A DNA stretch of 64,000 bases from Candidatus Omnitrophota bacterium (GTDB lineage: Bacteria > Omnitrophota > Gorgyraeia > Zapsychrales > Zapsychraceae), in NCBI GenBank assembly GCA_050250375.1, contig JBFWOS010000001.1:702361-766360 (forward strand), written 5' to 3'. A program made the translations under genes and the position numbers. Below, in pieces: positions 3,611 to 16,707 of this stretch (positions within the stretch are counted from its first letter, which is position 1; each line of letters begins with the position of its first letter). The notes under the pieces were generated by a model. It had not been told where the DNA came from. It searched no databases and saw only the letters and a program-made list of their open reading frames with translations.

Positions 3611-4219
3611 CTACACACTTTTTTTAGCGGTTACGGTTTTTCTGGGAGATGTCCGTCGGGTTTCGGAATGACCGTTGATCATGATCTTGGCCGCGGCCAG
3701 CAGATTCCTGGCGACAAAGTCCGGCTTGATCTTTTTTTCGCGCAGCCGTCCGGTGTCACTGCGTCCGGACAAGACAAAAATAGTCTTGCAGCCGGCGTTG
3801 CGGCCGGTGGCCATGTCCGTCACGGTGTCCCCGACAAAAAAGGCATTATTGGCGATCTGCATATCTTTTCTCAGCAACTTTACGGCCTTGCGGATGGACC
3901 CGATATTCGGTTTGCGGTCTTGACAATCCGAATCGGACCGGGCCGTGCTGTAATAAACCTCCCGGATGACGCCTCCCGCCTTGTTCACTTCCCTCAGCAT
4001 CTTGTTGGTGATCTGGTCGAGTTTCTTCTGGGTGAATATGCCTTTGCCGACCCCGGCCTGGTTGGAGACCACAAAGATGGTAAACCCGTCTTCGGTCAGC
4101 ATCCGGATCGCCTCGAGCGAACCGCGGATGAACTGGAAATTCTTGACCTTGGTGACATACTTCCCGTTGCCCGGAAATTTATTGATGACCCCGTCTCTGT
4201 CTAAAAATGCGATTTTCAT
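3611..4219 (-). CDS. gmhB: D-glycero-D-manno-heptose 1,7-bisphosphate 7-phosphatase (HAD family)
   Basis: FLDRDGVIN and DRKPNIG HAD motifs, about 200 aa. Collinear with E. coli GmhB. 4-nt overlap with the downstream GT2 gene. Confidence 0.8.
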   Translation of the reverse strand: MKIAFLDRDGVINKFPGNGKYVTKVKNFQFIRGSLEAIRMLTEDGFTIFVVSNQAGVGKGIFTQKKLDQITNKMLREVNKAGGVIREVYYSTARSDSDCQDRKPNIGSIRKAVKLLRKDMQIANNAFFVGDTVTDMATGRNAGCKTIFVLSGRSDTGRLREKKIKPDFVARNLLAAAKIMINGHSETRRTSPRKTVTAKKSV

Positions 4220-4980
4220 TTGGTTCGGTTATTTTTTTTCATTTCCCAATATTTGGCGTAACTCATAATTTGATACAAGGAGGCAAAATAGGCCACCATA
4301 AAACCGATAAACCCATCTTTATAGGCCTTCTTCCTGAAAAAGGTGCGCGTGAAGCGGTCGAACGCGCGCCACAAGGCCTTTCCTAATTTCACTTCACGGC
4401 CCGACTTGATCCATTTGGTCGCCTCCAGCGTCGTCTGACCGTTGAGTTTGGCCAGAAAATGGCTGAAGTCGCGGTAGCTGTAATGAATCATGTCCTTGGA
4501 CAGATGACCGTTTTTCCCGTCGAGTGAAGCGCCGGGATGGACCTCGGCCTCTTCATATTTGAACTTGTCCTTCAAAAACAGGCGCGCCTGGGCCGCCGGG
4601 TATTGTCCGCCCCATTTCACCCAGTAATCGCCGATATAATTCCGGCGCGGGATGGAATACGCCTGGCAGTCCGCCGTGGGCAGGACGGCATCGATCTCAT
4701 CACGCAGTTCAGGCGTGACCCGCTCGTCCGCGTCCAGGCTTAAAACCCAGTTATTTTTAGATTGGGCATAGGCCCAGTTGCGGTGCGCCCCTTCGACGTT
4801 CATCCGGCGCACAAAAAACCGGTCGGTAAATTTCCGGACGATCTGTTCTGTGCCGTCGGTGCTTTCATCATCCACCACAATGATTTCATCCGCCCAGCCG
4901 TGCACGCTTTTCAGGCATTCGTCAATCCGCTGTTCTTCATTTTTGGTAATCACAACAACTGTCACAGGTATCTTGCTCAT
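4216..4980 (-). CDS. Family 2 glycosyltransferase (LPS core/O-chain type)
   Basis: VVVITKNEE...DDESTDGT...LSLDADE is the GT-A DXD architecture. Confidence 0.8.
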   Translation of the reverse strand: MSKIPVTVVVITKNEEQRIDECLKSVHGWADEIIVVDDESTDGTEQIVRKFTDRFFVRRMNVEGAHRNWAYAQSKNNWVLSLDADERVTPELRDEIDAVLPTADCQAYSIPRRNYIGDYWVKWGGQYPAAQARLFLKDKFKYEEAEVHPGASLDGKNGHLSKDMIHYSYRDFSHFLAKLNGQTTLEATKWIKSGREVKLGKALWRAFDRFTRTFFRKKAYKDGFIGFMVAYFASLYQIMSYAKYWEMKKNNRTK

Positions 4981-4989
4981 GCGGCGGCC

Positions 4990-6090
4990 TTACACAAACC
5001 TTTTTAACGTGTCACACACCATATCGATATCATCCCGGGTCATGTGCGGATACATCGGGAGTGACAGGATTTCATTGGCTATCTTTTCCGAGACCGGCAG
5101 GTCGCCCGTCTTATAACCCGCGTCCTGATACGCCTCCTGCAGATGCACGGGGATCGGATAATGGATCAGCACGGCGATCTTGTTGGCCAGCATCTGTTCG
5201 ACGACTTCATCCCGCTTCGGGACCCTGACGGCGTAGGTCTGGAAAACATGCGTCCGGTCCTTCAGGACATTCGGCGTAATCACACTCTTGCATTCGGCCA
5301 GCTGTTCGTTGTAATACGCCGCGTTGTCCGCGCGCATACGGTTCCACTGGTCCAGATGTTTTAATTTCGCCGACAAGACAACCGCCTGGACGGTATCCAG
5401 GCGTGAATTATATCCCTTGATCTTATGGTCGTAACGGTTCTTGCGCCCGTAATCCCTTAACATAAAGATCTTGTCAAAAATCTCCTTGCTGCTGGTGACA
5501 ATCATACCCCCGTCGCCGAACGCGCCCAGGCTTTTGGTCGGATAAAAACTGAAACACGCGACATCCCCCAATGATCCGACCTTTTGGCCGTTATAGGCCG
5601 CTCCATGCGATTGGGCGGCGTCCTCAATCACGGCGATGTTATGGTCGCGGCAGATCGCGCTGATCTCGTCCATGTTTGCCGGCTGTCCGTACAGATGGAC
5701 AACGATCACCGCCTTGGTCCTGGGCGTAATCGCCTGTTTAAACTTGACCGGGTCGATATTGTACGTCTCCTCTTCAATATCGACAAAAACAGGAGTTGCC
5801 CCGGCATACGACACGCACAAGGCGGTCGCGATAAATGTGTATGAAGGCAGGATCACTTCATCCCCCACGGTGATATCCAGAGCCGCGATCGCCAGATAAA
5901 GCGCGTCGGTGCCTGAATTGACCCCGACCGCGTATTTCGCCTGGCAGTATTTGGCAAAGGCGACTTCAAAGTCCTTCTCTTCATCGCCGAGGATAAAATT
6001 CCCTTTTTCAAAAACTTTTTTTAGACCAATATCGATTTCATCCCTGATGAGTTCGTATTGTTGTGAAAAATCGATAAATTTGACGCTCAT
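4990..6090 (-). CDS. DegT/DnrJ/EryC1/StrS-family PLP sugar aminotransferase
   Basis: Catalytic lysine motif FSFYPTKSLGAFGDGG. Length and overall layout are typical of the family. Confidence 0.85.
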   Translation of the reverse strand: MSVKFIDFSQQYELIRDEIDIGLKKVFEKGNFILGDEEKDFEVAFAKYCQAKYAVGVNSGTDALYLAIAALDITVGDEVILPSYTFIATALCVSYAGATPVFVDIEEETYNIDPVKFKQAITPRTKAVIVVHLYGQPANMDEISAICRDHNIAVIEDAAQSHGAAYNGQKVGSLGDVACFSFYPTKSLGAFGDGGMIVTSSKEIFDKIFMLRDYGRKNRYDHKIKGYNSRLDTVQAVVLSAKLKHLDQWNRMRADNAAYYNEQLAECKSVITPNVLKDRTHVFQTYAVRVPKRDEVVEQMLANKIAVLIHYPIPVHLQEAYQDAGYKTGDLPVSEKIANEILSLPMYPHMTRDDIDMVCDTLKRFV

Positions 6091-7169
6091 AAGATTAACC
6101 CTACTTTGTTAAAGACTTCATCCACGGTGATTTCACTGAGACAACTCAGATGGGAACAATCGGTCATCCGGAACTTTCGGTAACACGGACGGCAGGCGAT
6201 GCCGGAAACCACGACGAAATGTTTTTTCTGGTTCGGCCACGGACCGTAAACGTTGTGGTCCACCGGCCCGAACATCGACACCGTGTTGGTCCCGGCCGCA
6301 ACCGCCATGTGCAGGGGACCGCCGTCATTGCAGACAACACCACGGCACCTGTTGAGGAGAGCCAATGACTGTCCTAAACTGGTCTGACCGAATGATTTAT
6401 ATACATTAGGGCACTGCCGGACAATTTCGGTGCAAAGTGTTTCCTCTGATTTGTCACCCATCAGTATAATCTGCACAGAGGATTTTTCAACGATTTTGTG
6501 GATTAATTTGATGTAATTTTCCTGCCCCCAGCGCTTGGAACCCGCGGATTTTCCCCAGCTGGAACCGCCTCCCGGAAATATCCCCAGCACCGGTTGGTCG
6601 GTCGATATTTTGTTTGATTTTAAAAACTGTGCGGCCCAGTCGCGGTGTTCCGGGGTGATGGTGATCTCTAGTTCACGTTGGATCGTTTCCACTCCGCAGT
6701 CAGACAGCAGGTCCAGGTAATATTGAACGACATGTTTGTCCTGAAAACCGGTCAGTTTGATTTTCTCAGTCAGAAACCGGGACCTGTTTTTATAATTAAA
6801 CCCGATCCGGGTCCTGATCCCGACCAGACTGGAGATCACGTTAAACATCTGGTTCATGGAAAAATCAAACAGGACATCGTATTGTTCCGCTTTGATCGTG
6901 CGGACAAAGCCGGAAAATTTTTTCAAGAATTCCCTTTTGGATTGTTTCCTGACGGCCTCAAATTCATCGCGTTCGTAGATATGGACTTTGCGGATCAGTG
7001 AGTGGTCTTCCAAGAGCGGGGCAACGCGTTTGTTCGCCATGTAATCGATGGCCGCGCCGGGAAAGTGATGGCGCAGGTTACTGACCAGCGGGGTCGTGAA
7101 CAGCACATCCCCGATGCCGAATATGTTGACGATCAAGATCCGCGAAGGATTCAGTTTCTTCAGGTTCAT
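6087..7169 (-). CDS. Family 9 glycosyltransferase (ADP-heptose:LPS heptosyltransferase family)
   Basis: N-terminus ILIVNIFGIGDVLFTTP and C-terminus GVVCNDGGPLHMA are GT9 heptosyltransferase signatures. Confidence 0.8.
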   Translation of the reverse strand: MNLKKLNPSRILIVNIFGIGDVLFTTPLVSNLRHHFPGAAIDYMANKRVAPLLEDHSLIRKVHIYERDEFEAVRKQSKREFLKKFSGFVRTIKAEQYDVLFDFSMNQMFNVISSLVGIRTRIGFNYKNRSRFLTEKIKLTGFQDKHVVQYYLDLLSDCGVETIQRELEITITPEHRDWAAQFLKSNKISTDQPVLGIFPGGGSSWGKSAGSKRWGQENYIKLIHKIVEKSSVQIILMGDKSEETLCTEIVRQCPNVYKSFGQTSLGQSLALLNRCRGVVCNDGGPLHMAVAAGTNTVSMFGPVDHNVYGPWPNQKKHFVVVSGIACRPCYRKFRMTDCSHLSCLSEITVDEVFNKVGLIL

Positions 7170-7215
7170 GGTAGGATTGTAACACCAGGGCCGGACATTT
7201 GTCGATCAGTGAATG

Positions 7216-7269
7216 AAAAAGGTGACGGACACCGTTTTTATATTGAAAAACGGTGTCCGTCACCTTTTT
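7216..7269 (-). terminator. Rho-independent terminator, bidirectional-capable hairpin
   Basis: Perfect inverted repeat AAAAAGGTGACGGACACCGTTTTT-atattg-AAAAACGGTGTCCGTCACCTTTTT. It lies directly after the methyltransferase stop at 7272 and is flanked by U-runs on the transcribed strand. Confidence 0.75.
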
Positions 7270-7271
7270 CT

Positions 7272-8351
7272 TTATTTCCTCACAATGTAATAATAATTGA
7301 GCGGATCGTGGTCCAGTTCCTTGATGTCGACCGAAGTAAACCCCGCTTCCTTCATCAGCGTCGTGGCCAGTTCCTTCCCCCACATGGCCCCGAGCCCTTC
7401 TCCGCCCTGGGCCAAAGACACACTCATGCAATGCGTGCAGGAAATGGTGTAAATGAACGGGGCCAGCGGATGGTCCAGGTTCTTTTCCACGTGGCTGGAC
7501 CCTTTGATGTCCTGGCAGAAATACGTGCCGTCTGGTTTAAGCGCGCGGTGGATGTTGGCGAGCATCTTGCGCGGTTTGGCCTGGTCGTGCACCGAATCAA
7601 AAGTGAAAATGACGTCGAACGTTTCTTTGTCATTAAACGCGGCGGCGTCCTGGACGGCAAAATCGATATTGCGTAATCCTTCCTCATGCGCCGCGGCCCT
7701 GGCTTTGGCAACAGCCTCGGCCGAAAAGTCGTAACCGGTAAACCGGCTTCTGGGGAAAGCCCGGGCCATCGCGATGAGCGCGCGCCCGCTGCCACAGCCG
7801 ACATCCAGCACCCGGATGCCTGACTCCAGCTGTTCCTTGAGACCATCGACCAACGGAAGGAGTTTTTCAACCAGCGGCGACACCACGGACTGATAACTTT
7901 CTTCGGCCATGACCTCGTGAAAACGGTTGTATTCCTCGTAACGCAGTCCGCCGCCTTTCTGAAAACTCTCCACGATGCGGTCCTCGACGTACGCCATGAC
8001 ATGGATCCACTGCGCGGTCACCGCGATGTTGTTGGGCGCGTTCCCGCGCGTCAGCCACGCCGCGTGCTCCGCCGGCAGGACGTACGTCTTCTTGACGGGA
8101 TCGTAATCCACGATGCGGCCCGTGACCATGGCCCCGAGCCATTCCCGCACATAACGCTCCTGAAGCCCGGCGGCATCGGCGATCTGTTGACTGGTAGACG
8201 GCGTAAGTTTCGCCATCGTGTCAAAGAGCCCGGTGCGGTAACCGATGCTGATCATCAGCCCCACGGCGCTCTGGTTGAGGATGCCGACACAGCGTTCGGC
8301 AAACGCGTCTTTTTTGGATGGATCGATTACGACTTGACAACTGTTACACAT
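7272..8351 (-). CDS. Class I SAM-dependent methyltransferase with an N-terminal winged-helix dimerisation domain
   Basis: VLDVGCGSG motif. AAGGAG lies 6 nt upstream of the ATG of MCNSCQ..., so the track N-terminal extension up to 8435 is 5-prime UTR. GC-rich relative to its neighbours. Confidence 0.8.
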   Translation of the reverse strand: MCNSCQVVIDPSKKDAFAERCVGILNQSAVGLMISIGYRTGLFDTMAKLTPSTSQQIADAAGLQERYVREWLGAMVTGRIVDYDPVKKTYVLPAEHAAWLTRGNAPNNIAVTAQWIHVMAYVEDRIVESFQKGGGLRYEEYNRFHEVMAEESYQSVVSPLVEKLLPLVDGLKEQLESGIRVLDVGCGSGRALIAMARAFPRSRFTGYDFSAEAVAKARAAAHEEGLRNIDFAVQDAAAFNDKETFDVIFTFDSVHDQAKPRKMLANIHRALKPDGTYFCQDIKGSSHVEKNLDHPLAPFIYTISCTHCMSVSLAQGGEGLGAMWGKELATTLMKEAGFTSVDIKELDHDPLNYYYIVRK

Positions 8352-8501
8352 AACATGCTCCTTTCTCAGGCGCGGCCCCGCTTCCGGGACGGCCCTAATT
8401 CCGTTTGTGGTTATCGGTTTGTTCCTGAAAAACATACAGGGTGTTTAAGGTTAAGATGGTGAATAATTCGGTCATGGTTTTCCTCCGTTTATCGTTTGAA
8501 T

Positions 8502-8657
8502 CTAAACTTCAATCCAATGGGTTCCGGGCATAGGCGCTGCAGACTTAAAAAGGTCTGCGGTGATCTCCACCCCGGGAAATTTTTCCGCCACCAGGTCATT
8601 AAAAGCGTCGATGTCAAAATAGGTTTTGTCTTCAATCCGGTAAAATATACGTTTCAT
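8502..8657 (-). CDS. Small hypothetical protein of 51 aa (start chosen at the internal Met with a GAGGAA SD)
   Basis: The track ORF 8502..8726 contains the TetR-type operator palindrome in its 5-prime part, so I chose the downstream start MKRIFYRIEDK. Confidence 0.3.
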   Translation of the reverse strand: MKRIFYRIEDKTYFDIDAFNDLVAEKFPGVEITADLFKSAAPMPGTHWIEV

Positions 8658-8674
8658 CAGAATTTCCTCAAAAA

Positions 8675-8690
8675 GACCGACCAGTCGGTC
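8675..8690 (-). promoter_or_regulatory. TetR-type operator palindrome GACCGAC-CA-GTCGGTC, copy 2, downstream of tetR and upstream of the small ORF and methyltransferase
   Basis: 16-bp perfect palindrome. A near-identical copy sits in the tetR promoter at 9320-9334. Confidence 0.5.
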
Positions 8691-8709
8691 ACAACTGCCC
8701 AAAAAAATT

Positions 8710-9306
8710 TTATCCCTTTTCTCCAATCAATGGCCGGATCGCCCTGGCCGCCTGGTCATACGGCCACGGGTCCTGATAAATCTCCGCATTGGTTAGCGCC
8801 CCGATCTGGATCAACAGGTACTGGTCCGCGACAAAATCCGGGTCAAGTTCCTTGTATTTCGGGTCGGATTCGATCAGGTCGCGCACCATTTCCCTGATCA
8901 CACCGCGGTAGACCTCATAGTGGTGTTTGGCCTCCTTGCGGATAGGGCTTTTGCCGTCCGTGACCTCGGCCGCCATGTTCGAAAACGCGCACCCGCGGTA
9001 CTCCGTCGAGACCATCCAGTCCCGCATGATCGTGTTGAACCCGATGTACTTCTGGTAAGGGTCCTTGATCCGGCCGACCATTTCCCGCAGTTCATACATC
9101 TCTCTGGCGTGGCGGTTGCGCATGTACGCGGCGCCCAGTTCGTCTTTGGTGGCAAAATGGGTATAAAACGTCCCCTTGGACACCCCGGCCTCATCGATGA
9201 TCTGCTGGATGCCGGTGGCGTTGTAACCCTGCCGGTAAAAAAGGTCGGTGGCGGCTTCGAGGATCCTGTCTTTGGCTGTTCCTTTTATTTGGCTTGTCTT
9301 GTTCAT
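8710..9306 (-). CDS. TetR/AcrR-family transcriptional regulator
   Basis: N-terminal HTH ILEAATDLFYRQGYNATGIQQIIDEAGVSKGTFYTHF. 198 aa. Confidence 0.85.
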   Translation of the reverse strand: MNKTSQIKGTAKDRILEAATDLFYRQGYNATGIQQIIDEAGVSKGTFYTHFATKDELGAAYMRNRHAREMYELREMVGRIKDPYQKYIGFNTIMRDWMVSTEYRGCAFSNMAAEVTDGKSPIRKEAKHHYEVYRGVIREMVRDLIESDPKYKELDPDFVADQYLLIQIGALTNAEIYQDPWPYDQAARAIRPLIGEKG

Positions 9307-9309
9307 GCT

Positions 9310-9346
9310 CTAAATATACGACCGACTGGTCGGTTTGTCAAGGGGT
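9310..9346 (-). promoter_or_regulatory. Sigma70-like promoter (TTGACA-17-TATATT) whose spacer holds the palindrome ACCGAC-tg-GTCGGT; predicted autoregulated, near-leaderless tetR promoter
   Basis: Read on the minus strand: cTTGACAaaccgaccagtcggtcgTATATTtagagcATG. Confidence 0.55.
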
Positions 9347-9435
9347 ATTTTAAAAAACTTTGCGGGAGGCGCGGGACAGGACGTTTGTCGAACATGGATA
9401 ATGACCAACTGCCCTCTACCTTACCTTTTCCACAT

Positions 9436-9906
9436 CTATTTTTTCTTTATCCTCAAATGTTCCTCGGGACCAAATCTGTTAAAAATAGAATGATAAATAA
9501 CGCTTCCTGGCAATCGCCATTCATTATAAGGATAACCGTCTTTCCCAATCTTTGAAATTTTTGGTTCTCCAAATTCCTTTTCAAAATAGTCGTTGAATTC
9601 TTTAAATGATTTATCTAGATCAATATAAGAAGACCGAAAGAATTCCAACTCTTTTAGAAGGCCCTTTCTTCTTGGCTCAAAATGAAATCCTAAATTATGT
9701 TTAAGTCCACCCAATGATTCGCAATAACTTTTGGCATAATAACCTTCAGTGACATGATTAAGCGTCACTTTATTATTTTCAAATATTTCAACAAACAGAT
9801 CTTCTTTAATATTCCAAGGAATAAATAAACTTGGCTTATCTATCTGAAATCCATTTCTTATATCCATAACAACCTTAAAAGAGAAGGGGATTTGTGCCGG
9901 CCACAA
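9436..9906 (-). CDS. Hypothetical protein (AT-rich, no recognisable domain)
   Basis: 156-aa ORF in a low-GC segment. Confidence 0.45.
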   Translation of the reverse strand: MWPAQIPFSFKVVMDIRNGFQIDKPSLFIPWNIKEDLFVEIFENNKVTLNHVTEGYYAKSYCESLGGLKHNLGFHFEPRRKGLLKELEFFRSSYIDLDKSFKEFNDYFEKEFGEPKISKIGKDGYPYNEWRLPGSVIYHSIFNRFGPEEHLRIKKK

Positions 9907-9929
9907 AAAAACGTGCCAGTTTGTGCCAG

Positions 9930-10490
9930 CTATCTATTTTCTTCAATCCAATCATGCGCAAGCTTATTAATTCGTTTAATCTGTTCTGGGGTTAAGCTTC
10001 GCATGATTTGATCTCGTAAACCACGGGCTCTCCATTTGGCCTGCATATCTGAAGATAGCTGCGTGTAAAACCGAGCAATCTCGAGCCAGAAATATGCTTT
10101 TTCAAAAGATTGTTCAATATTATCGCCGTCTCCATACATTACTGCCAAATTAATCATTCCCCTTGGATCTCCGGCATTGGCAGCCTCTTTATATAGAGAT
10201 ATTGCTTTTTCATTATCTTCTGCAACACCTAAACCCAAGTCATACATATAGCCTAAGTTAGTTTTCGCATATGATAAGTCCTGATCCACAGCCTTTTGAT
10301 AATACATAACAGCCTTCTCATAATCTTGCGGAACACCATCTCCAAATTGATATCTGCTTCCCATATTATTTAACCCAGCACCTTCTCCCATCGCCGCTAA
10401 TTTTTGATCCTCAGATAAACTAGAAGCAGTCACAGTTGCGCAGCCACTTAGAAGTAAAGAAAAAATTAACAAATAAATTTGCTTGCTCAT
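9930..10490 (-). CDS. Sel1-repeat lipoprotein
   Basis: Lipobox LLLSGC. Tandem Sel1-like repeats (GVPQDYEKAVMYYQKAVDQ, GVAEDNEKAISLYKEAANAG). Confidence 0.75.
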   Translation of the reverse strand: MSKQIYLLIFSLLLSGCATVTASSLSEDQKLAAMGEGAGLNNMGSRYQFGDGVPQDYEKAVMYYQKAVDQDLSYAKTNLGYMYDLGLGVAEDNEKAISLYKEAANAGDPRGMINLAVMYGDGDNIEQSFEKAYFWLEIARFYTQLSSDMQAKWRARGLRDQIMRSLTPEQIKRINKLAHDWIEENR

Positions 10491-10557
10491 AATATTTTAT
10501 CCTACACTTATACGATGGACACACCGCTTAAGTAGTGGCATTACATTACTTAACTAC

Positions 10558-10697
10558 TGGTCAATCCCCTTCAACTTCAAAAAATCGCGGACGGTTTGGA
10601 CGACATAATCCATCTGGTTCAATTCAAGGTCCTGGTGGATGCCGATATGGGTGCCGCGGGCGGAGCAGTATTCGGCTTCCCGGGACGTACTTAATTA
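10558..10697 (-). pseudogene. Relic of the last ~43 codons of a DegT/ColD-family gene, a diverged copy of the 3-prime end of the gene at 12222..13475
   Basis: Translates to EAEYCSARGTHIGIHQDLELNQMDYVVQTVRDFLKLKGIDQ*. The intact gene ends EAEYCAGHGTHIGIHQDIELNQLDYVAQTVRDFLKAKGINR*. About 80 percent nt identity over ~140 bp. In frame directly behind the Fic stop codon. Confidence 0.6.
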
Positions 10698-11894
10698 TTG
10701 ATTCAGTCCGCTGTCCTCTTTTAATGAGTAACTCGTGCTGCGGCCGCCGGCCGGGTCCTTAACCAAAACACCTTTTCCAACAAGATCAAGAATGTCCCGA
10801 TGAGCGGTATCCTGCGAACACTTGGTGATTTTCGCCCATTTTGAAGTGGTCAGTTTACCCTCAAAACTGTCAAACAACTTGTTGATCATTGTCTTCTGGC
10901 GTTCGTTAATGGATCCAGCCGGAAGAGAATCCCAGAAGCGCACCTTTTTGAACACACCGGACAATGTGGTTTCGGTTGTGTCCAGCGCCCGGCCCAAACA
11001 ATTTAAAAACCACACCAGCCACGCCGTGATATCAATGCCGTCTTTTGCGGCATGGATACTTTTCTGTGTCTTTTCAAGAATATCGTAATAGGCATTCCGT
11101 TCCTGCCGGATATGGTTCGACATGCTGTAAAAACGCTCCCGGCTGCCGTCGGCGCGCGCCAGCTGCATATCGGCAATGGCCCGGGCTATACGGCCGTTGC
11201 CGTCATCAAAAGGGTGAAGCGTCACGAACCACAAATGCGCGATACCCGCCTTGAGCACGGGGTCCAAGTCCTTCGATCCACCTGTGGTGAGCGAAGGCCT
11301 TCGACCTTGCGCAGGCCGAGCCGAACCATTGAACCAAGCCAGAAATTCCTTCGTTTCACTCTTGAGGCGGCCGGCTTCCGGCGCTTCATAATGGACCTTC
11401 TCCCGGCCAACAGGACCGGACACAACTCGCATGGGGCCATGACGGTCGTCGCGCCAGGCGCCAACGGTAATTTTATGCATTCCACTGTGTCCGGTCGGAA
11501 ACAAACCGGCCTGCCAGCCAAACATTCGATCCTGGGTAAGGGGCTTGTCGAAATTCTGAGTGGCATCGAGCATCATTTCCACCACCCCGTCCACGTGACG
11601 ATCAGACGGCACAAGCCCTCCAATGTCCATACCCAGCCTTCGCGCGATGGATGAGCGCACTTTGGCCGGATCAAGGACCTCCCCCTCAATTTCACTGCTT
11701 TTTAAAACGTCAAGAGTGAGCGTCTGTAAAACGGCCTCCGAACGCAAAGAAAATCCCAGCGTTTCCATGCGTCCGATCAATCGCCCCTGCCGGTTGCGCA
11801 CGGGACCTAATATCGACGTGATTTTTTCATGATCCCATGTAAACGTCGGCCAAATATCTAATTCATGGATGTATTTCATCCCGGTTCCCTTCAT
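10695..11894 (-). CDS. Fic-family protein (DUF4172-type N-domain, Fic core, C-terminal winged helix)
   Basis: Canonical Fic motif HPFDDGNGRIARA. The true start is probably the second Met (MKYIHELD, 11879), which is preceded by AAGGGAA. Confidence 0.9.
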   Translation of the reverse strand: MKGTGMKYIHELDIWPTFTWDHEKITSILGPVRNRQGRLIGRMETLGFSLRSEAVLQTLTLDVLKSSEIEGEVLDPAKVRSSIARRLGMDIGGLVPSDRHVDGVVEMMLDATQNFDKPLTQDRMFGWQAGLFPTGHSGMHKITVGAWRDDRHGPMRVVSGPVGREKVHYEAPEAGRLKSETKEFLAWFNGSARPAQGRRPSLTTGGSKDLDPVLKAGIAHLWFVTLHPFDDGNGRIARAIADMQLARADGSRERFYSMSNHIRQERNAYYDILEKTQKSIHAAKDGIDITAWLVWFLNCLGRALDTTETTLSGVFKKVRFWDSLPAGSINERQKTMINKLFDSFEGKLTTSKWAKITKCSQDTAHRDILDLVGKGVLVKDPAGGRSTSYSLKEDSGLNQ

Positions 11895-11919
11895 GTTTTA
11901 AGCGGCAAACAAACGACAC

Positions 11920-12142
11920 ATTCTCCGCATTTTCTGCGTAGAATATAACACATATTCTCCGCATTAACAAGCGGTATTTCAGACTAAAGAAGATGATCTT
12001 GTCGTAAAAAATACCTGCTTTTGCGGCAGAGTAAATTGATTATATATATGTAAGATATTAAAATATAACAACTTGAGATGGGTTGTTTAAACCACGTGTA
12101 TACGCTTAACCTTTGCGGAGATTAGGCCCATTATTCTCCGCA
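11920..12142 (-). promoter_or_regulatory. Array of ATTCTCCGCAT direct repeats (11920, 11954, 12133) plus one inverted partial copy (TGCGGAGAT at 12114) in the Fic upstream region
   Basis: An 11-mer is identical in three copies with similar flanks (acaCATTCTCCGCAT / acaTATTCTCCGCAT / catTATTCTCCGCAT). An A/T-rich stretch lies between them. Confidence 0.5.
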
Positions 12143-12221
12143 TATCCGGCTCTAATCCCAGGGGCACGTACCCTGTCTTTGGGAAGGGGAGTCCCGGTTT
12201 CGGGACAGAACTACAGCTTTT

Positions 12222-13475
12222 TTACCGGTTAATCCCCTTCGCCTTGAGAAAATCGCGGACGGTCTGGGCGACGTAATCCAGCTGGTTCAGCTCGATGTCC
12301 TGGTGGATCCCGATATGGGTGCCGTGGCCGGCGCAATATTCCGCCTCGGGGAATTCACCTTGTTTATGCCCCATAAAGCCGTAACTCGGGCACTGGGTCG
12401 GGATGGAGGAAAATAAATTTCTTGAGTCGATCCCCTGCTGTTCGATGTGTTGCACGAATTCGTCTTTCGTAAACGGGCAGTTTTCTTTCAGGATGATCGA
12501 GAAGGCATGCGGCCCGATTTTTTCATGTTCCTGTTCATGCAATGTGATAAAAAATTCCTGAAAATCCCTGAACAGGTTGATCAGATACAATAAATTCCGG
12601 CGGCGTTTGCCCAGGATATCCTGAAAGATGTCGATATTACCCAGACCGACAGCCGCTTCCATTTCGTTCATCTTGGCGGAAAAACCGATCCGCTGGAACT
12701 CAAATTTGTTGACGATGCCGTGGTTGCGCAGCGACTGCATGGCCTGGGCTTTTTTCTCGTCGTTGGTGATGATGATCCCGCCTTCAATCGTGGTCACGAT
12801 ATGGGCGGCGTAAAGGCTGAAGGCGGCCATGTCGCCGATCGAGCCGATCTTCTTCCCTTTATATTCCGCGCCATGCGCCTCGGCCGCGTCTTCGATAACG
12901 ATCAGGTTATGTTTCTTGGCGATGGCCATGATCTTATCCATCTCGGCCGGTTTGCCCATCAGATGCACGGGCATGAGGGCGCGCGTTTTTTGGGTGATCG
13001 CTTTTTCAATCAGGTCCGGATTGATATTCAGCGTGTGCCGGTCGACATCCACAAACACAGGCGTTAACCCGGCCTGCAGGACGGCATTGGCGGTAGCGAC
13101 AAAGGTCAGCGCCGGGATGATCACCTCATCCCCGCGTTGGGCGCCGTAATCATACAGCACCGCGCAGGCAATCGCGTCGGCGTCGGTCCCGCTGCTGACG
13201 GCCACGGCGTATTTCACGCCGAACAGTTTGGCGAAACGTTCTTCGAACTCCTGCACAAAACGCCCGCGCGTCAGCCATTTTGACCGCAACGCCTCCTGGA
13301 TCAGCTCAACGGAGCGGTCCGTCAGGGAAACGGTCCCGAACGGGACCTTGAAATCTTTCTTAGCCGACATGGCTGAACTATTTTCCATTCCTAAAGAACT
13401 CCATGGCTTTTTCGTAGCGCTCCGGCGTGCCGATGTCAAAAAATTCGCCTTTGGACTTAAACCCGTACAAACCAT
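12222..13475 (-). CDS. ColD/E1(DdhC, RfbH)-type PMP-dependent NDP-4-keto-6-deoxy-sugar 3-dehydrase
   Basis: DegT fold in which the Schiff-base Lys is replaced by His (FSLYAAHIVTTIEGG, cf. ColD/E1 FY.HHI.TMEGG). C-terminal Cys residues are present. The start is more likely an internal Met (13388 or 13370), because the track start overlaps the upstream gene by 98 nt. Confidence 0.8.
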   Translation of the reverse strand: MVCTGLSPKANFLTSARRSATKKPWSSLGMENSSAMSAKKDFKVPFGTVSLTDRSVELIQEALRSKWLTRGRFVQEFEERFAKLFGVKYAVAVSSGTDADAIACAVLYDYGAQRGDEVIIPALTFVATANAVLQAGLTPVFVDVDRHTLNINPDLIEKAITQKTRALMPVHLMGKPAEMDKIMAIAKKHNLIVIEDAAEAHGAEYKGKKIGSIGDMAAFSLYAAHIVTTIEGGIIITNDEKKAQAMQSLRNHGIVNKFEFQRIGFSAKMNEMEAAVGLGNIDIFQDILGKRRRNLLYLINLFRDFQEFFITLHEQEHEKIGPHAFSIILKENCPFTKDEFVQHIEQQGIDSRNLFSSIPTQCPSYGFMGHKQGEFPEAEYCAGHGTHIGIHQDIELNQLDYVAQTVRDFLKAKGINR

Positions 13476-14088: not shown

Positions 14089-15076
14089 ATTCTCCGTTCG
14101 GTTGATAAAAAATAATCTGGCTGCCCAGGCTCTCGAATTCAAACGGTACCAGGAGCAAATCCTTTAATTTTTCCCTGACCTTCTTCTGTTTCTCCGGGGG
14201 GACAAATAATAATACGAACCCGCCTCCGCCCGCCCCGAGCAATTTTCCGCCGACCGCGCCGGACGCCTTGGCCGAGTCATAAATCTCGTCAATCATCGGG
14301 GTCGAAATCTTGTCGGAGAGTTTTCTCTTGATCTGCCAGCCCTCATCGAGGAGTTCGCCGAATTCTTTGAGCCGGTCTTCCTTGAGCAGTTCAAGCCCCC
14401 TGACCGCCATTGCGTGCATGGCCTTCAACTCCGGTTTCTTTTTGGGGATATTTTTAATCTGATGGGCCGCGATCACCGAGGCGGTCCGGGAAAACCCGGT
14501 AAAAAATAACATCAAATGGTCCTGAAACCGCTTCAAGCGGTCCGAGGGAATAATCACCTTGTTGACCTGCAGAAGCTGGCTCCCGCCGAATTCAATAAAA
14601 TTAAATCCTCCGTAAGCCGCCAGCGCCTGGTCCTGGCAGCCGACATTTTCATGGCACATCTGCTGTTCGATATAAATGGCCTCTTCCGTCAGTTTGGACT
14701 TGCTCGTCATCCGTCCCAGCAGGGCGTAAAGGCTGTTTAACAATCCGACGGTGAATGAAGAACTTGAACCCAGGCCGGTCCGGGCCGGCAAATCGCCGTC
14801 GTGGTGGATCTCGATCCCTTTATGGATGTCCAGGTATCGAAGGACTTCCCGCACGGCCGGGTGATCAATATCATTGATTTCGGAAACATGTTCCATCTTG
14901 GAGTAGATGATCCTGGACTTATGGTCGAAGAACGGCGGCAGGTACCGGCAGGTGATATAACAATATTTATTAATCGTCGTTGCCAGGACAGCCCCGGGGT
15001 TGTTTTCAAACCAGGCCGGATAATCCGTCCCTCCTCCGAAAAACGACATGCGAAATGGTGTGCGGCTGATGATCAT
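14066..15076 (-). CDS. GHMP-family sugar kinase (HddA-like D-glycero-D-manno-heptose 7-phosphate kinase / fucokinase-like)
   Basis: MIISRTPFRMSFFGGGTDYP N-terminus. GHMP motif PARTGLGSSSSFTVG. Confidence 0.8.
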   Translation of the reverse strand: MIISRTPFRMSFFGGGTDYPAWFENNPGAVLATTINKYCYITCRYLPPFFDHKSRIIYSKMEHVSEINDIDHPAVREVLRYLDIHKGIEIHHDGDLPARTGLGSSSSFTVGLLNSLYALLGRMTSKSKLTEEAIYIEQQMCHENVGCQDQALAAYGGFNFIEFGGSQLLQVNKVIIPSDRLKRFQDHLMLFFTGFSRTASVIAAHQIKNIPKKKPELKAMHAMAVRGLELLKEDRLKEFGELLDEGWQIKRKLSDKISTPMIDEIYDSAKASGAVGGKLLGAGGGGFVLLFVPPEKQKKVREKLKDLLLVPFEFESLGSQIIFYQPNGEYDNAGES

Positions 15077-16584
15077 ACCGGCTTCCTCTCCTCCAGGATT
15101 TTTCTCTTAAGTTTGATCGTGGTTGAACGGACCGTCTCATCATAGGCCGTCTGGCCGAATTTGGTTTTGAGCAGATCCAGGAATTGGCTGTTCGTGTGAT
15201 ATTTCATCCAGGCCTCGTCCCGGAAGGCGAGCACTTCCTGCGCCGAGAGATATTTCGTCGGCAGCGGCAGCTGATGATAGGAATGCTGGGAATACCCCGT
15301 ATACGTGTCCGGAAGTTTCCAGCCCTTTTCAAGCGCCATGCCGTACAGCGGACTGCCGGGGTACGCCATAGCCGAATAAAAATTGGCCTCTTCGGTGTTC
15401 ATCTCCATCGCCAGGTCCAGGGTCGTCTGCATGCTCTGGTGATCATCCTCGGGAAGGCCGAAAATGTAATTGGCGATGACGTTGATGTCATGCTCCCGGA
15501 TTTTCCCGACCACGTCCCTGATGTCGACATCTTCAAACCGGCCTTTGGTGACATCCTTGCGCACCCGGGTATTGCCGCTTTCGATGCCCAGGGCCAGCCA
15601 ATTGACACCGGCTTTTTTGAGGGTCTCGAGAAATTTTTCTTTGACCGTGTCCACCCGGGAATAACACCAGATGTTGAATTTGTATTTCCGTTCGATGATC
15701 AGTTCACACAGCTTCATAAAATGATTTGAGTTCAGGACGAACAGTTCGTCGGCGATCTTGATATTGGTGATCCCGCGTTTGGCGAGTTCATCAAATTCTC
15801 CAATGATGAATTCCGGGTCCCAGTAACGGAACACGGCACTTCCGTCGGAATACTGGTTTTCCTGCCGGTTGATGATGTTGATCATGCAAAACGAACATTT
15901 CATCGGGCAGCCGAGGCTGGTGTACAAGGCCGCGAACGGCTGGCGTTGGGAACCGTTCGGGTACGAATGCCACAGGCTTGTCCGGTAATTTTTCATCGGC
16001 AGTTTGTCCCAGGGAATACCCGGCAGTTCTTTGGGCAGGTCCGCCTTCTCGACGATCGGGGAGGGCGCGTTTAACACGACTGTTCCGTCCTGCCTGTATC
16101 CGAGTCCGGGAACGGCACTAAGTTTGTCTTTCAAATTGGTCTTAAGCAAAGTGGAAATCGTGTAAACCCCTTCGTTCTGGCAGACAAAATCGATGCACGC
16201 GTGATTCTCCAGCACTTCGCGGGATAACGCGGCGATGTGGCCCCCGACAAACAGAATCTTTACCTCCGGCAAGATATTCCTGAGCTCCTGCGCGAGCGCG
16301 ACGGCGCCTTCCATATTCTGCGAACTCGCGGACGGCTGCTGGCCGTAAACGACAAAACAGGCCACCTTCGGCTTTATCTCCTTGATCTTCCGGGCTGATT
16401 CTTCATCCGTTAAGTGCAGGGCCTCACAGTCGAGGATGTCCGCCGAAAACCCTCTCGAGAGACAGTGGCTGGTCAGCATACCGGCCCAGATCGGCGGCTC
16501 AATGGCAGAAAAATCTTTGCTTAAATCCTGGTAGATTTTATGCGAGGCATTGGGATGAACAAATAAAATATCAAGCTGTCCCAT
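15073..16584 (-). CDS. Cobalamin(B12)-binding radical SAM protein (class B rSAM)
   Basis: N-terminal B12-binding Rossmann-like domain (KILFVGGHIAAL). CPMKCSFC radical SAM cluster motif. 503 aa. 4-nt overlap with the kinase gene. Confidence 0.85.
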   Translation of the reverse strand: MGQLDILFVHPNASHKIYQDLSKDFSAIEPPIWAGMLTSHCLSRGFSADILDCEALHLTDEESARKIKEIKPKVACFVVYGQQPSASSQNMEGAVALAQELRNILPEVKILFVGGHIAALSREVLENHACIDFVCQNEGVYTISTLLKTNLKDKLSAVPGLGYRQDGTVVLNAPSPIVEKADLPKELPGIPWDKLPMKNYRTSLWHSYPNGSQRQPFAALYTSLGCPMKCSFCMINIINRQENQYSDGSAVFRYWDPEFIIGEFDELAKRGITNIKIADELFVLNSNHFMKLCELIIERKYKFNIWCYSRVDTVKEKFLETLKKAGVNWLALGIESGNTRVRKDVTKGRFEDVDIRDVVGKIREHDINVIANYIFGLPEDDHQSMQTTLDLAMEMNTEEANFYSAMAYPGSPLYGMALEKGWKLPDTYTGYSQHSYHQLPLPTKYLSAQEVLAFRDEAWMKYHTNSQFLDLLKTKFGQTAYDETVRSTTIKLKRKILEERKPV

Positions 16585-16587
16585 AAC

Positions 16588-16707
16588 TCAATACTGCCTA
16601 GTTAGTAGGGCACCCGCCAAAACTTTCTGTTTTGGCGAGGCCTCGCCCAATGAACAGCGTTCATTGGGCGGGTTAGGGTGAATAAATAGAATGTCTATCT
16701 GGCTCAT
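16588..16707 (-). repeat. Nested-palindrome element plus a relic duplicate of the first 12 codons of the rSAM gene
   Basis: Three overlapping perfect palindromes: GCCAAAAC-tttct-GTTTTGGC (16616-16636), GGCGAGG/CCTCGCC (16634-16647) and CGCCCAATGAAC-agc-GTTCATTGGGCG (16644-16670). Upstream at 16707-16672 is ATG AGC CAG ATA GAC ATT CTA TTT ATT CAC CCT AAC = MSQIDILFIHPN. The real gene starts MGQLDILFVHPN, and the differences are mostly at wobble positions. Confidence 0.5.

Follow-up and report, generated by a model that had tools for sequence, protein, structure and literature searches.

A ColD-type gene tail behind a SoFic-like Fic gene in an Omnitrophota sugar operon, a probable scar of one-sided homologous recombination

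The stretch of DNA analysed here, called the window, comprised 64,000 nucleotides of a Candidatus Omnitrophota genome and held a nucleotide-sugar/LPS cluster as identified by Pfam and NCBIfam. The genes considered were all encoded on the minus strand, in the order of two epimerases, a B12-binding radical SAM protein (rSAM), a GHMP kinase, a nucleotidyltransferase, a DegT-family gene (12222-13388) given the working name ColD, and Fic. Past Fic, the order continued with a short stub similar to the end of ColD, a Sel1-repeat gene and a hypothetical gene, TetR, an HTH-methyltransferase, a family-9 glycosyltransferase (GT9) and a second DegT gene. The GHMP kinase matched the HddA heptose-kinase model and the nucleotidyltransferase matched the HddC model, each below the NCBIfam cut-off. 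No Rfam family reached its threshold anywhere in the 64-kb window. The features along the minus strand were as follows, where L170, L165 and L167 are relatives described below.

16672-16707, minus strand: rSAM start ghost, encoding MSQIDILFIHPN
16585-16671, minus strand: hairpin-rich insert of ~88 nt (counted as 16585-16672), which separates the ghost from the real rSAM start
15073-16584, minus strand: rSAM (B12-binding radical SAM)
12871-13388, minus strand: 5' part of ColD, backbone (L170) type, 86-93% nucleotide identity to L170
12222-12870, minus strand: 3' part of ColD, putative imported tract of L165/L167 type, including the repeat copy 12223-12355
12146-12221, minus strand: 76-nt spacer after the ColD stop with a GTCCCGAAACCGGGAC hairpin, presumed donor DNA
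11880-12145, minus strand: Fic promoter/operator region, with TGCGGAGAAT half-sites at 11920-11964 and 12114-12145
10695-11879, minus strand: Fic, 394 aa from MKYIHELD, with DUF4172, Fic and a C-terminal HTH-like part (Pfam)
10688-10716, minus strand: junction zone with the non-conserved Fic tail EDSGLNQ, the TAA (10697-10695) and ~8 nt before the ColD homology
10554-10687, minus strand: ColD 3' stub, the last 41-43 codons and TAG of a probable former ColD allele (blastn, relatives)
7177-10553, minus strand: resident-side cargo from the stub to GT9 (Pfam, GC profile), containing the next four genes
9930-10490, minus strand: Sel1 lipoprotein-like gene
9436-9906, minus strand: hypothetical gene, 156 aa
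8710-9306, minus strand: TetR
7272-8435, minus strand: HTH-methyltransferase, with a strong terminator hairpin
6087-7169, minus strand: GT9 (family-9 glycosyltransferase)
4990-6090, minus strand: second DegT gene

The blastn search within the window aligned 10555-10679 with 12223-12347 over 125 bp at 83.2% identity without any gap (E 5e-33), and the next-best matches of the stub within the 64 kb had E 0.16 or worse. A repeat search detected the same pair, 1668 bp apart. The longest exact run between the two copies was 16 nt, and the similarity stopped at both stop codons. When translated, 32/41 residues of the stub were identical to the C-terminus of ColD (tblastn, E 1.5e-20). The homology of the stub to the closer relatives L170, L171 and L172 began at 10687. 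Behind the Fic stop codon TAA (10697-10695), 46 codons (10694-10557) were open in the Fic frame and closed by a TAG (10556-10554). The figures in the earlier note, which had described about 140 bp of about 80% identity, 43 encoded residues and the TAA as the sole separator of the two frames, were essentially right.

The stub carried only 41-43 codons, lacking the complete PLP-fold domain (about 360 positions) and a start codon of its own. The sole ORF on its minus strand was a 22-aa TTG ORF, and the scan for promoters and terminators detected nothing on the minus strand inside the stub. The stub is a fragment of the DegT/DnrJ/EryC1/StrS family (PF01041), a remnant and no gene, and it has no function. 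That the frame stays open past the Fic TAA is coincidental, the remnant being young and short, and an in-frame arrangement is expected by chance in one case out of three. The same structure was present with 100% identity in a separate Logan assembly (L084), and a 1.2-Mb contig with identical Fic and ColD proteins is listed in the database.

The Fic protein, identical to the database protein P0001, was assigned by Pfam to DUF4172 (8e-32) and Fic (3e-12), and it matched the structure PDB 8cil (7e-89). The catalytic motif HPFxxGNGR was found as HPFDDGNGRIAR in the translation. PADLOC matched the gene to SoFic with 1.8e-36 over 18-351/361, and the score against the NCBIfam SoFic equivalog was 40 bits, not reaching the cut-off of 550. 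The nearly full-length profile match and the Fic motif identify the gene as SoFic-like at the level of prediction. The relatives of this Fic numbered in the thousands. The aligned ones (80-93% identical) ended 1-5 residues past the conserved SYSLK, and most of them were 4-6 residues shorter at this end than the window Fic. Across 80 metagenomic Fic loci, the nucleotide homology always ended at 10715-10729 and started at ~11962-11982, with the exception of L086, where the homology of the Fic unit started at 12143. Between the end of the Fic-family homology (~10717) and the onset of the ColD homology (10687-10690) lay ~29 nt. We also considered the stub as a conserved C-terminal extension of Fic, and this was rejected as 0/80 of the related Fic loci carried it. 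The ColD tail, Sel1, the hypothetical gene and TetR were likewise found near Fic in 0/80 metagenomic loci, and no conserved ORF occurred downstream of Fic among the 80. In another Omnitrophota genome (L081), a Fic of 88% identity was encoded within a defence island, alongside type III restriction, a Cap2/JAB pair and a deaminase.

The region 11880-12145 travelled with Fic. The comparison of the upstream regions of L085-L164 identified a conserved operator, with a 45-nt element that was 84-96% conserved where the coding sequence was only 70-75% identical. The operator consisted of the palindrome TGCGGAGAATAT...ATATTCTCCGCA over a sigma-70-like promoter (TTGC.. as -35 and TATATT as -10), with a third TGCGGAGAAT half-site behind it. 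In 56/65 loci the motif lay at most 200 nt upstream of Fic, and it was counted 114 times in 12.9 kb upstream of Fic versus 11 times in 443 kb elsewhere. Such conservation of the operator beyond that of the coding sequence suggested that Fic is autoregulated by its C-terminal HTH-like domain. As the gene had its own conserved promoter/operator, definite bounds and homologues in unrelated contexts, we regard Fic as a predicted portable, self-contained module of roughly 12145-10717. For the spacer between this module and ColD (12146-12221), the only matches in the loci compared were two exact words, 14-16 nt long and with E 0.03-0.5, which occurred in unrelated Fic loci.

The closest relative was the Logan contig L170, with 89-91% nucleotide identity over 22281-12224 and an rSAM protein 98% identical. 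In L170, a Vsr gene and a C5 cytosine methylase of 28-36% GC began at the ColD stop (11170), and in L172 a hypothetical gene and DarT were located at the ColD stop (2335). L001 and L165-L169 had no insert, GT9 following ColD after a gap of 29-37 nt, and compared with these loci the window had 5045 extra bases (12221-7177), the stub included. In the more distant L002-L007, 2-9 kb of other genes lay between ColD and GT9. As each lineage carried different cargo or none, the ColD stop is a hypervariable cargo site, and by the predicted functions of the inserted genes it appears to be a hot spot for defence/toxin modules in the sugar operon.

The intact ColD matched Pfam DegT over the full length (6.6e-105) and corresponded to a gene call of 388 aa in L083. 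The matches to PDB entries included E1 dehydrase (1.8e-54) and ColD (~1e-50), and aminotransferases scored higher (3e-65). ColD/E1-type sugar 3-dehydratases are marked by a histidine instead of the Schiff-base lysine. At the position where aminotransferases have the lysine motif, placed by eye, ColD read FSLYAAHIVTTIEGG. This sequence, together with the HddA/HddC-like and B12-radical SAM neighbours, suggested that the gene may encode a 3-dehydratase of the ColD/E1 type with a substrate of the GDP-heptose type.

The gene combined two lineage types in a mosaic. A count of informative sites among the window, L170 and L167 gave 500 L170-like vs 142 L167-like sites between the rSAM start and 12879, and 106 L167-like vs 45 L170-like sites between 12866 and the ColD stop. 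The maximum chi-square was 131 at 12879/12866, a value reached in 0/1000 permutations, and the sliding identities agreed with it. As the informative sites switched here, the last ~650 bp of the intact ColD appear to derive from an L165/L167-like lineage, and the breakpoint therefore marks a putative homologous crossover lying across Fic from the stub. The breakpoint at ~12870 could also stem from an unrelated recombination.

The affinity of the stub was investigated by comparison with the C-termini of 120 full-length ColD homologues. The stub shared 35/41 residues with P0127/L170 and 34/41 with P0122/L171, and most of the residues by which it was distinguished (S, R, DLEL, NQM, VVQTV and KLKG) occurred in these two intact proteins. 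The exceptions, without a counterpart in them, were the second position in 'SAR' and the DQ at the end; the tail of the stub reads ...CSARGTHIGIHQDLELNQMDYVVQTVRDFLKLKGIDQ. Between the stub and the intact tail there were 10 synonymous and 11 non-synonymous differences, giving dS 0.54, dN 0.12 and a ratio of 0.23 for 41 codons only. This ratio and the peculiar residues shared with intact homologues argue for an origin of the stub from a functional allele.

Over the last 123 coding bases, the identity of the stub was 0.83 to the intact copy, 0.83 to L170, 0.84 to L171 and 0.80 to L172, and lower to L167 (0.77), L165 (0.73) and L001 (0.68). The segment 10676-10615 was identical to L170 at 60/62 positions (97%) and to all others at 54/62 or fewer, so that the best-resolved part of the stub is assigned to the backbone (L170) type by its sequence. 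The last 58 nt showed 48/58 to the intact copy, 47/58 to L171 and 40/58 to L170. As this end was not L170-like, either the resident allele was itself a mosaic or the extreme end of L170 had been altered by its own insertion. Three other sources of the stub were considered and rejected. In-situ duplication followed by decay disagreed with the differences of the stub, which were mostly natural variants of intact homologues, and with the 97% identity of its 5' half to L170. Accretion of tandem islands was rejected because neither the GT9 side nor the relatives contained a third copy of the tail, and the second DegT gene (4990-6090) gave no match to the stub. As the window's other DegT failed to match, the partner would be an allele and not a paralogue, which narrows the earlier suggestion of recombination between paralogous or allelic sugar genes to its allelic half. 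We consider the stub to be probably a displaced tail, left over from the ColD-like allele of this genome before Fic was gained. None of the relatives examined had a second tail copy.

On the far side of the stub, the Sel1-repeat and hypothetical genes (9436-10490) had a GC content of 33-40%, compared with ~52% in the surroundings. Neither gene had a PADLOC match or a meaningful NCBIfam match, and the pair looks like a foreign and separate acquisition. This pair had been supposed to arrive together with Fic. It lies downstream of the stub, contiguous with the resident-type tail, and that supposition was not borne out; since Fic alone lies between the repeats, the pair was already present or came separately. 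Exact look-ups of the Sel1 and TetR proteins of the window matched only assemblies of the same genome, with no recipient-like context. The interval between the methyltransferase and GT9 (7180-7265) contained a perfect hairpin with a 20-bp stem between A- and T-runs (AAAAAGGTGACGGACACCGTTTTT...AAAAACGGTGTCCGTCACCTTTTT), which looks like a bidirectional terminator at the far edge of the 5-kb extra segment.

The sequences themselves show the homology of the stub and its allelic affinity, the mosaic breakpoint, the bounds of the Fic unit and the lack of the stub at other Fic loci. We infer an order of events, a one-step mechanism and a route of DNA entry that would account for this arrangement. 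The backbone chromosome would have been of the L170 type. DNA from an L165/L167-like relative, consisting of the last ~650 bp of ColD, the 76-nt spacer and the self-regulated SoFic-like Fic module, would have paired with the resident ColD and been joined to it by a homologous crossover near position 12870. The opposite end (~10690) would have been joined illegitimately, linking the sequence just past the Fic stop to a point ~131 nt before the resident ColD stop. The locus would have grown by 1668 bp and kept ColD intact as a mosaic, and the resident tail would have been orphaned and pushed 1668 bp away together with Sel1, the hypothetical gene, TetR and the methyltransferase. We judge such a single event, with a homologous crossover in ColD and an illegitimate join at the other end, to be the probable origin of the structure. 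The donor (L167-type ColD, spacer and Fic) was not found in the genome and metagenome scans of the collections searched, nor was the recipient (full-length stub-type ColD followed by Sel1). The earlier note had interpreted the stub as a ColD-type remnant and a recombination scar tied to the arrival of Fic, and this was upheld by the match to the ColD tail (E 5e-33) and by the absence of the stub from the 80 Fic loci. Its attribution to homologous recombination held for recombination as such and for the crossover inside ColD at ~12870. It did not hold at the stub, which marks the illegitimate join, because a homologous crossover leaves no duplicated tail.

The earlier note had also taken the rSAM start ghost, together with the stub, as evidence of one rebuilding of the locus. 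The ghost itself was real, as 26/36 of its bases were identical to the real rSAM start and 0/20000 shuffles reached its score. It was located 9 nt past the stop of the first epimerase gene (Epi1), where L170 and L001 start rSAM, and aligned with their true start. The 88-nt insert that follows was folded into two long hairpins (-48.7 kcal/mol, z -6.2). It was single-copy in the sequences examined and common only to L165-L167 (about 6717-6804) at the same site, L170 and L001 lacking it. A repeated mobile element or a known RNA was rejected as an explanation, the insert being single-copy and having no Rfam match in the window, and it may represent a structured leader or what is left of a small element. 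L165 and L167 shared the ghost and the insert with the same junction, the ghost there lacking the ATG and one base, and had neither Fic nor the stub. The ghost would thus be a separate and older feature of another lineage, and its proposed linkage to the stub did not stand. Only the patch 16696-16542 around the ghost was L167-like, and both 16540-12880 (~3.7 kb) and the flank upstream of the ghost were L170-like. As the block between them was of the same type as the upstream flank, the ghost and the stub were not two ends of one cassette. Spacers of 70-95 nt were observed upstream of rSAM also in more distant relatives, namely L003 (~4950-5025), L004 (~3990-4063) and L008 (~1765-1853); these contained many direct and inverted repeats of the GTCACC/GGTGAC type, unlike the 88-nt insert in sequence and the same in position.

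Other routes to the same structure were weighed against the single event. Two successive steps would give exactly the observed final structure. In the first, Fic would have inserted into ColD at a distance of 131 nt from its stop and truncated it. In the second, the import of an L167-type 3' end, including the stop and the spacer, would have restored the function, with one homologous crossover at ~12870 and one illegitimate join bordering the Fic operator on its upstream side. The mosaic breakpoint is indeed present, and as the spacer 12146-12221 had no convincing match, the second junction could be located there. However, this order requires a deleterious intermediate and two illegitimate joins, and the cargo of the relatives enters past the ColD stop codon, not inside the gene; we regard it as unlikely. 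One donor molecule of the L165/L167-like lineage might also have brought both the ghost patch (16696-16542) and the ColD-3'/Fic patch, as both foreign patches were of this type within an L170-type backbone, and discontinuous donor segments have been reported for single transformation events (PMC13344027). But the ghost pre-exists in L165 and L167, which have neither Fic nor the stub, ~3.7 kb of backbone-type sequence separates the two patches, and nothing dates both alike, leaving this joint import improbable. A Campbell-type integration, by one crossover within the 131-nt tail, of a donor circularised illegitimately from the Fic 3' flank to the ColD tail is the commoner product in E. coli, where most apparent products of homology-facilitated illegitimate recombination were single crossovers of circularised donors with duplications of 109-950 bp (PMC3240628). 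It predicts a donor-type 5' end of the stub, yet 10676-10615 was of the backbone type (60/62 to L170). It also leaves the L167-type tract of ~520 nt upstream of the repeat unexplained, and a repeat of only 131 nt, 83% identical and with no exact run beyond 16 nt, would be a poor substrate for recombination. Because of the type of the 5' end and the unexplained 520-nt tract, this integration fits less well, and we give it little chance.

An element that brings a surrogate gene end and integrates site-specifically, as e14 does in icd, leaving icdC, would produce the same anatomy, in which the intact gene has its 3' end replaced and the insert is followed by a diverged direct repeat of the tail, and the ColD stop is a recurrent cargo site. 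Nevertheless, Pfam detected no integrase or other recombinase domain in 7177-12221, and Fic was the sole gene between the repeats. The repeats, 83% identical with a longest exact run of 16 nt, contained no identical core; other Fic loci were without such repeats, and none of the relatives had a second copy of the tail. These results made site-specific integration very improbable. An assembly chimera of co-existing strains would be conceivable for a metagenome-assembled genome with a contig that is a mosaic of two lineage types. In contrast, the junction of Fic and stub lay in unique sequence with no shared k-mer, the repeats shared no more than 16 identical bases running, the identical structure occurred in an independent Logan contig, and the same proteins were recorded on the 1.2-Mb contig. 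With the junction unique and recurring in an independent assembly, a chimera has only a slight chance of being the explanation. Expression of the stub as a modulator of Fic, either fused to it when the stop codon is read through or as a separate small peptide, would agree with the 46 open codons in frame and with the report of a similar-sized antitoxin downstream of EcSofic, the 47-residue AS1 of E. coli (PMC12249575). The stub, however, has no start codon apart from that of the 22-aa TTG ORF, its sequence is plainly that of a ColD tail, and 0/80 related Fic loci have the stub or a conserved downstream ORF. The stop context TAA-T is a strong terminator in E. coli, and the Fic stop codon is in the context TAA-T. 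We consider expression of the stub extremely unlikely.

The single event with one homologous crossover thus retained as the preferred reading would make the stub a dated footprint of the entry of Fic, itself functionless. Annotators should mark the stub as a pseudogene fragment and neither merge it with Fic nor call it a small ORF. A single-gene SoFic-like module without a mobility gene would be able to enter an uncultured, small-genome phylum by one-sided homologous recombination, the anchor of the acquisition being a conserved cell-envelope sugar gene at whose end different defence/toxin modules accumulate in different lineages. A wider generalization, that the ColD stop in the Omnitrophota heptose/LPS operon is a recurrent capture site and that modules spread by recombination anchored in the sugar gene, is put forward tentatively and is more doubtful than the event itself. 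If true, the stub would be the first direct footprint of defence genes hitch-hiking on the exchange of surface-polysaccharide genes without a mobility gene.

Several known systems resemble parts of this arrangement. The Fic gene resembles SoFic, a single-gene anti-phage defence (PMC12249575), in its nearly full-length match to the PADLOC model, in the HPFxxGNGR motif and in having a relative within a defence island (L081). Unlike SoFic, it scored below the NCBIfam equivalog cut-off, and its defence role is predicted from sequence; unlike in E. coli Sofic, an AS1-like downstream gene was not conserved in the clade of the window Fic. In E. coli K-12, icd and icdC flank the prophage e14, icdC being a tail pseudogene (PMC13626634, citing Hill et al. 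1989). The likeness is that the insert supplies the 3' end of the intact gene, with a C-terminal pseudogene fragment on the far side as a diverged direct repeat, and the difference is that e14 is a 15-kb integrase-bearing prophage with a defined attachment site, unlike the insert of the window with its 1.67 kb, one gene, no recombinase and no identical core.

Displacement is also known from toxin loci. Kirchberger et al. 2017 (PMC5361080), citing Jackson et al. 2009, describe C-terminal displacement in Rhs, CDI and T6SS effector loci, and a displacement model, in which one-sided homology is likewise combined with an illegitimate join, has been proposed for the orphan 3' ends and orphan immunity genes of toxin loci. 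As in these loci, the conserved 5' part of the gene would act as an anchor, and an incoming 3' end with cargo would displace the old end, which is kept downstream as an orphan. Unlike in these loci, the gene of the window is a nucleotide-sugar-modifying enzyme and not a polymorphic toxin, the displaced tail and its replacement are equivalent alleles that share 32/41 residues, and the cargo is an unrelated defence-type gene with one displaced tail and no array.

Homology-facilitated illegitimate recombination, which combines one-sided homology with an illegitimate join, has been described in naturally competent bacteria and in a study of E. coli (PMC3240628). The window agreed with it in the switch of lineage at ~12870, in the non-homologous Fic cargo and in the join at ~10690 without extended homology. 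A donor-type tract with a homologous crossover lay on one side of the cargo (12879/12866, chi-square 131), and on the other side was a join without extended homology, Fic ending at ~10717 and ColD beginning at 10687-10690. Compared with that experimental system (PMC3240628), the case of the window is known from sequence only. It differs also in that the join fell inside the recipient's copy of the anchor gene, by which the 131-nt tail was duplicated and no recipient DNA deleted. The stub is an ordinary recombination scar, a further instance of a well-known kind.
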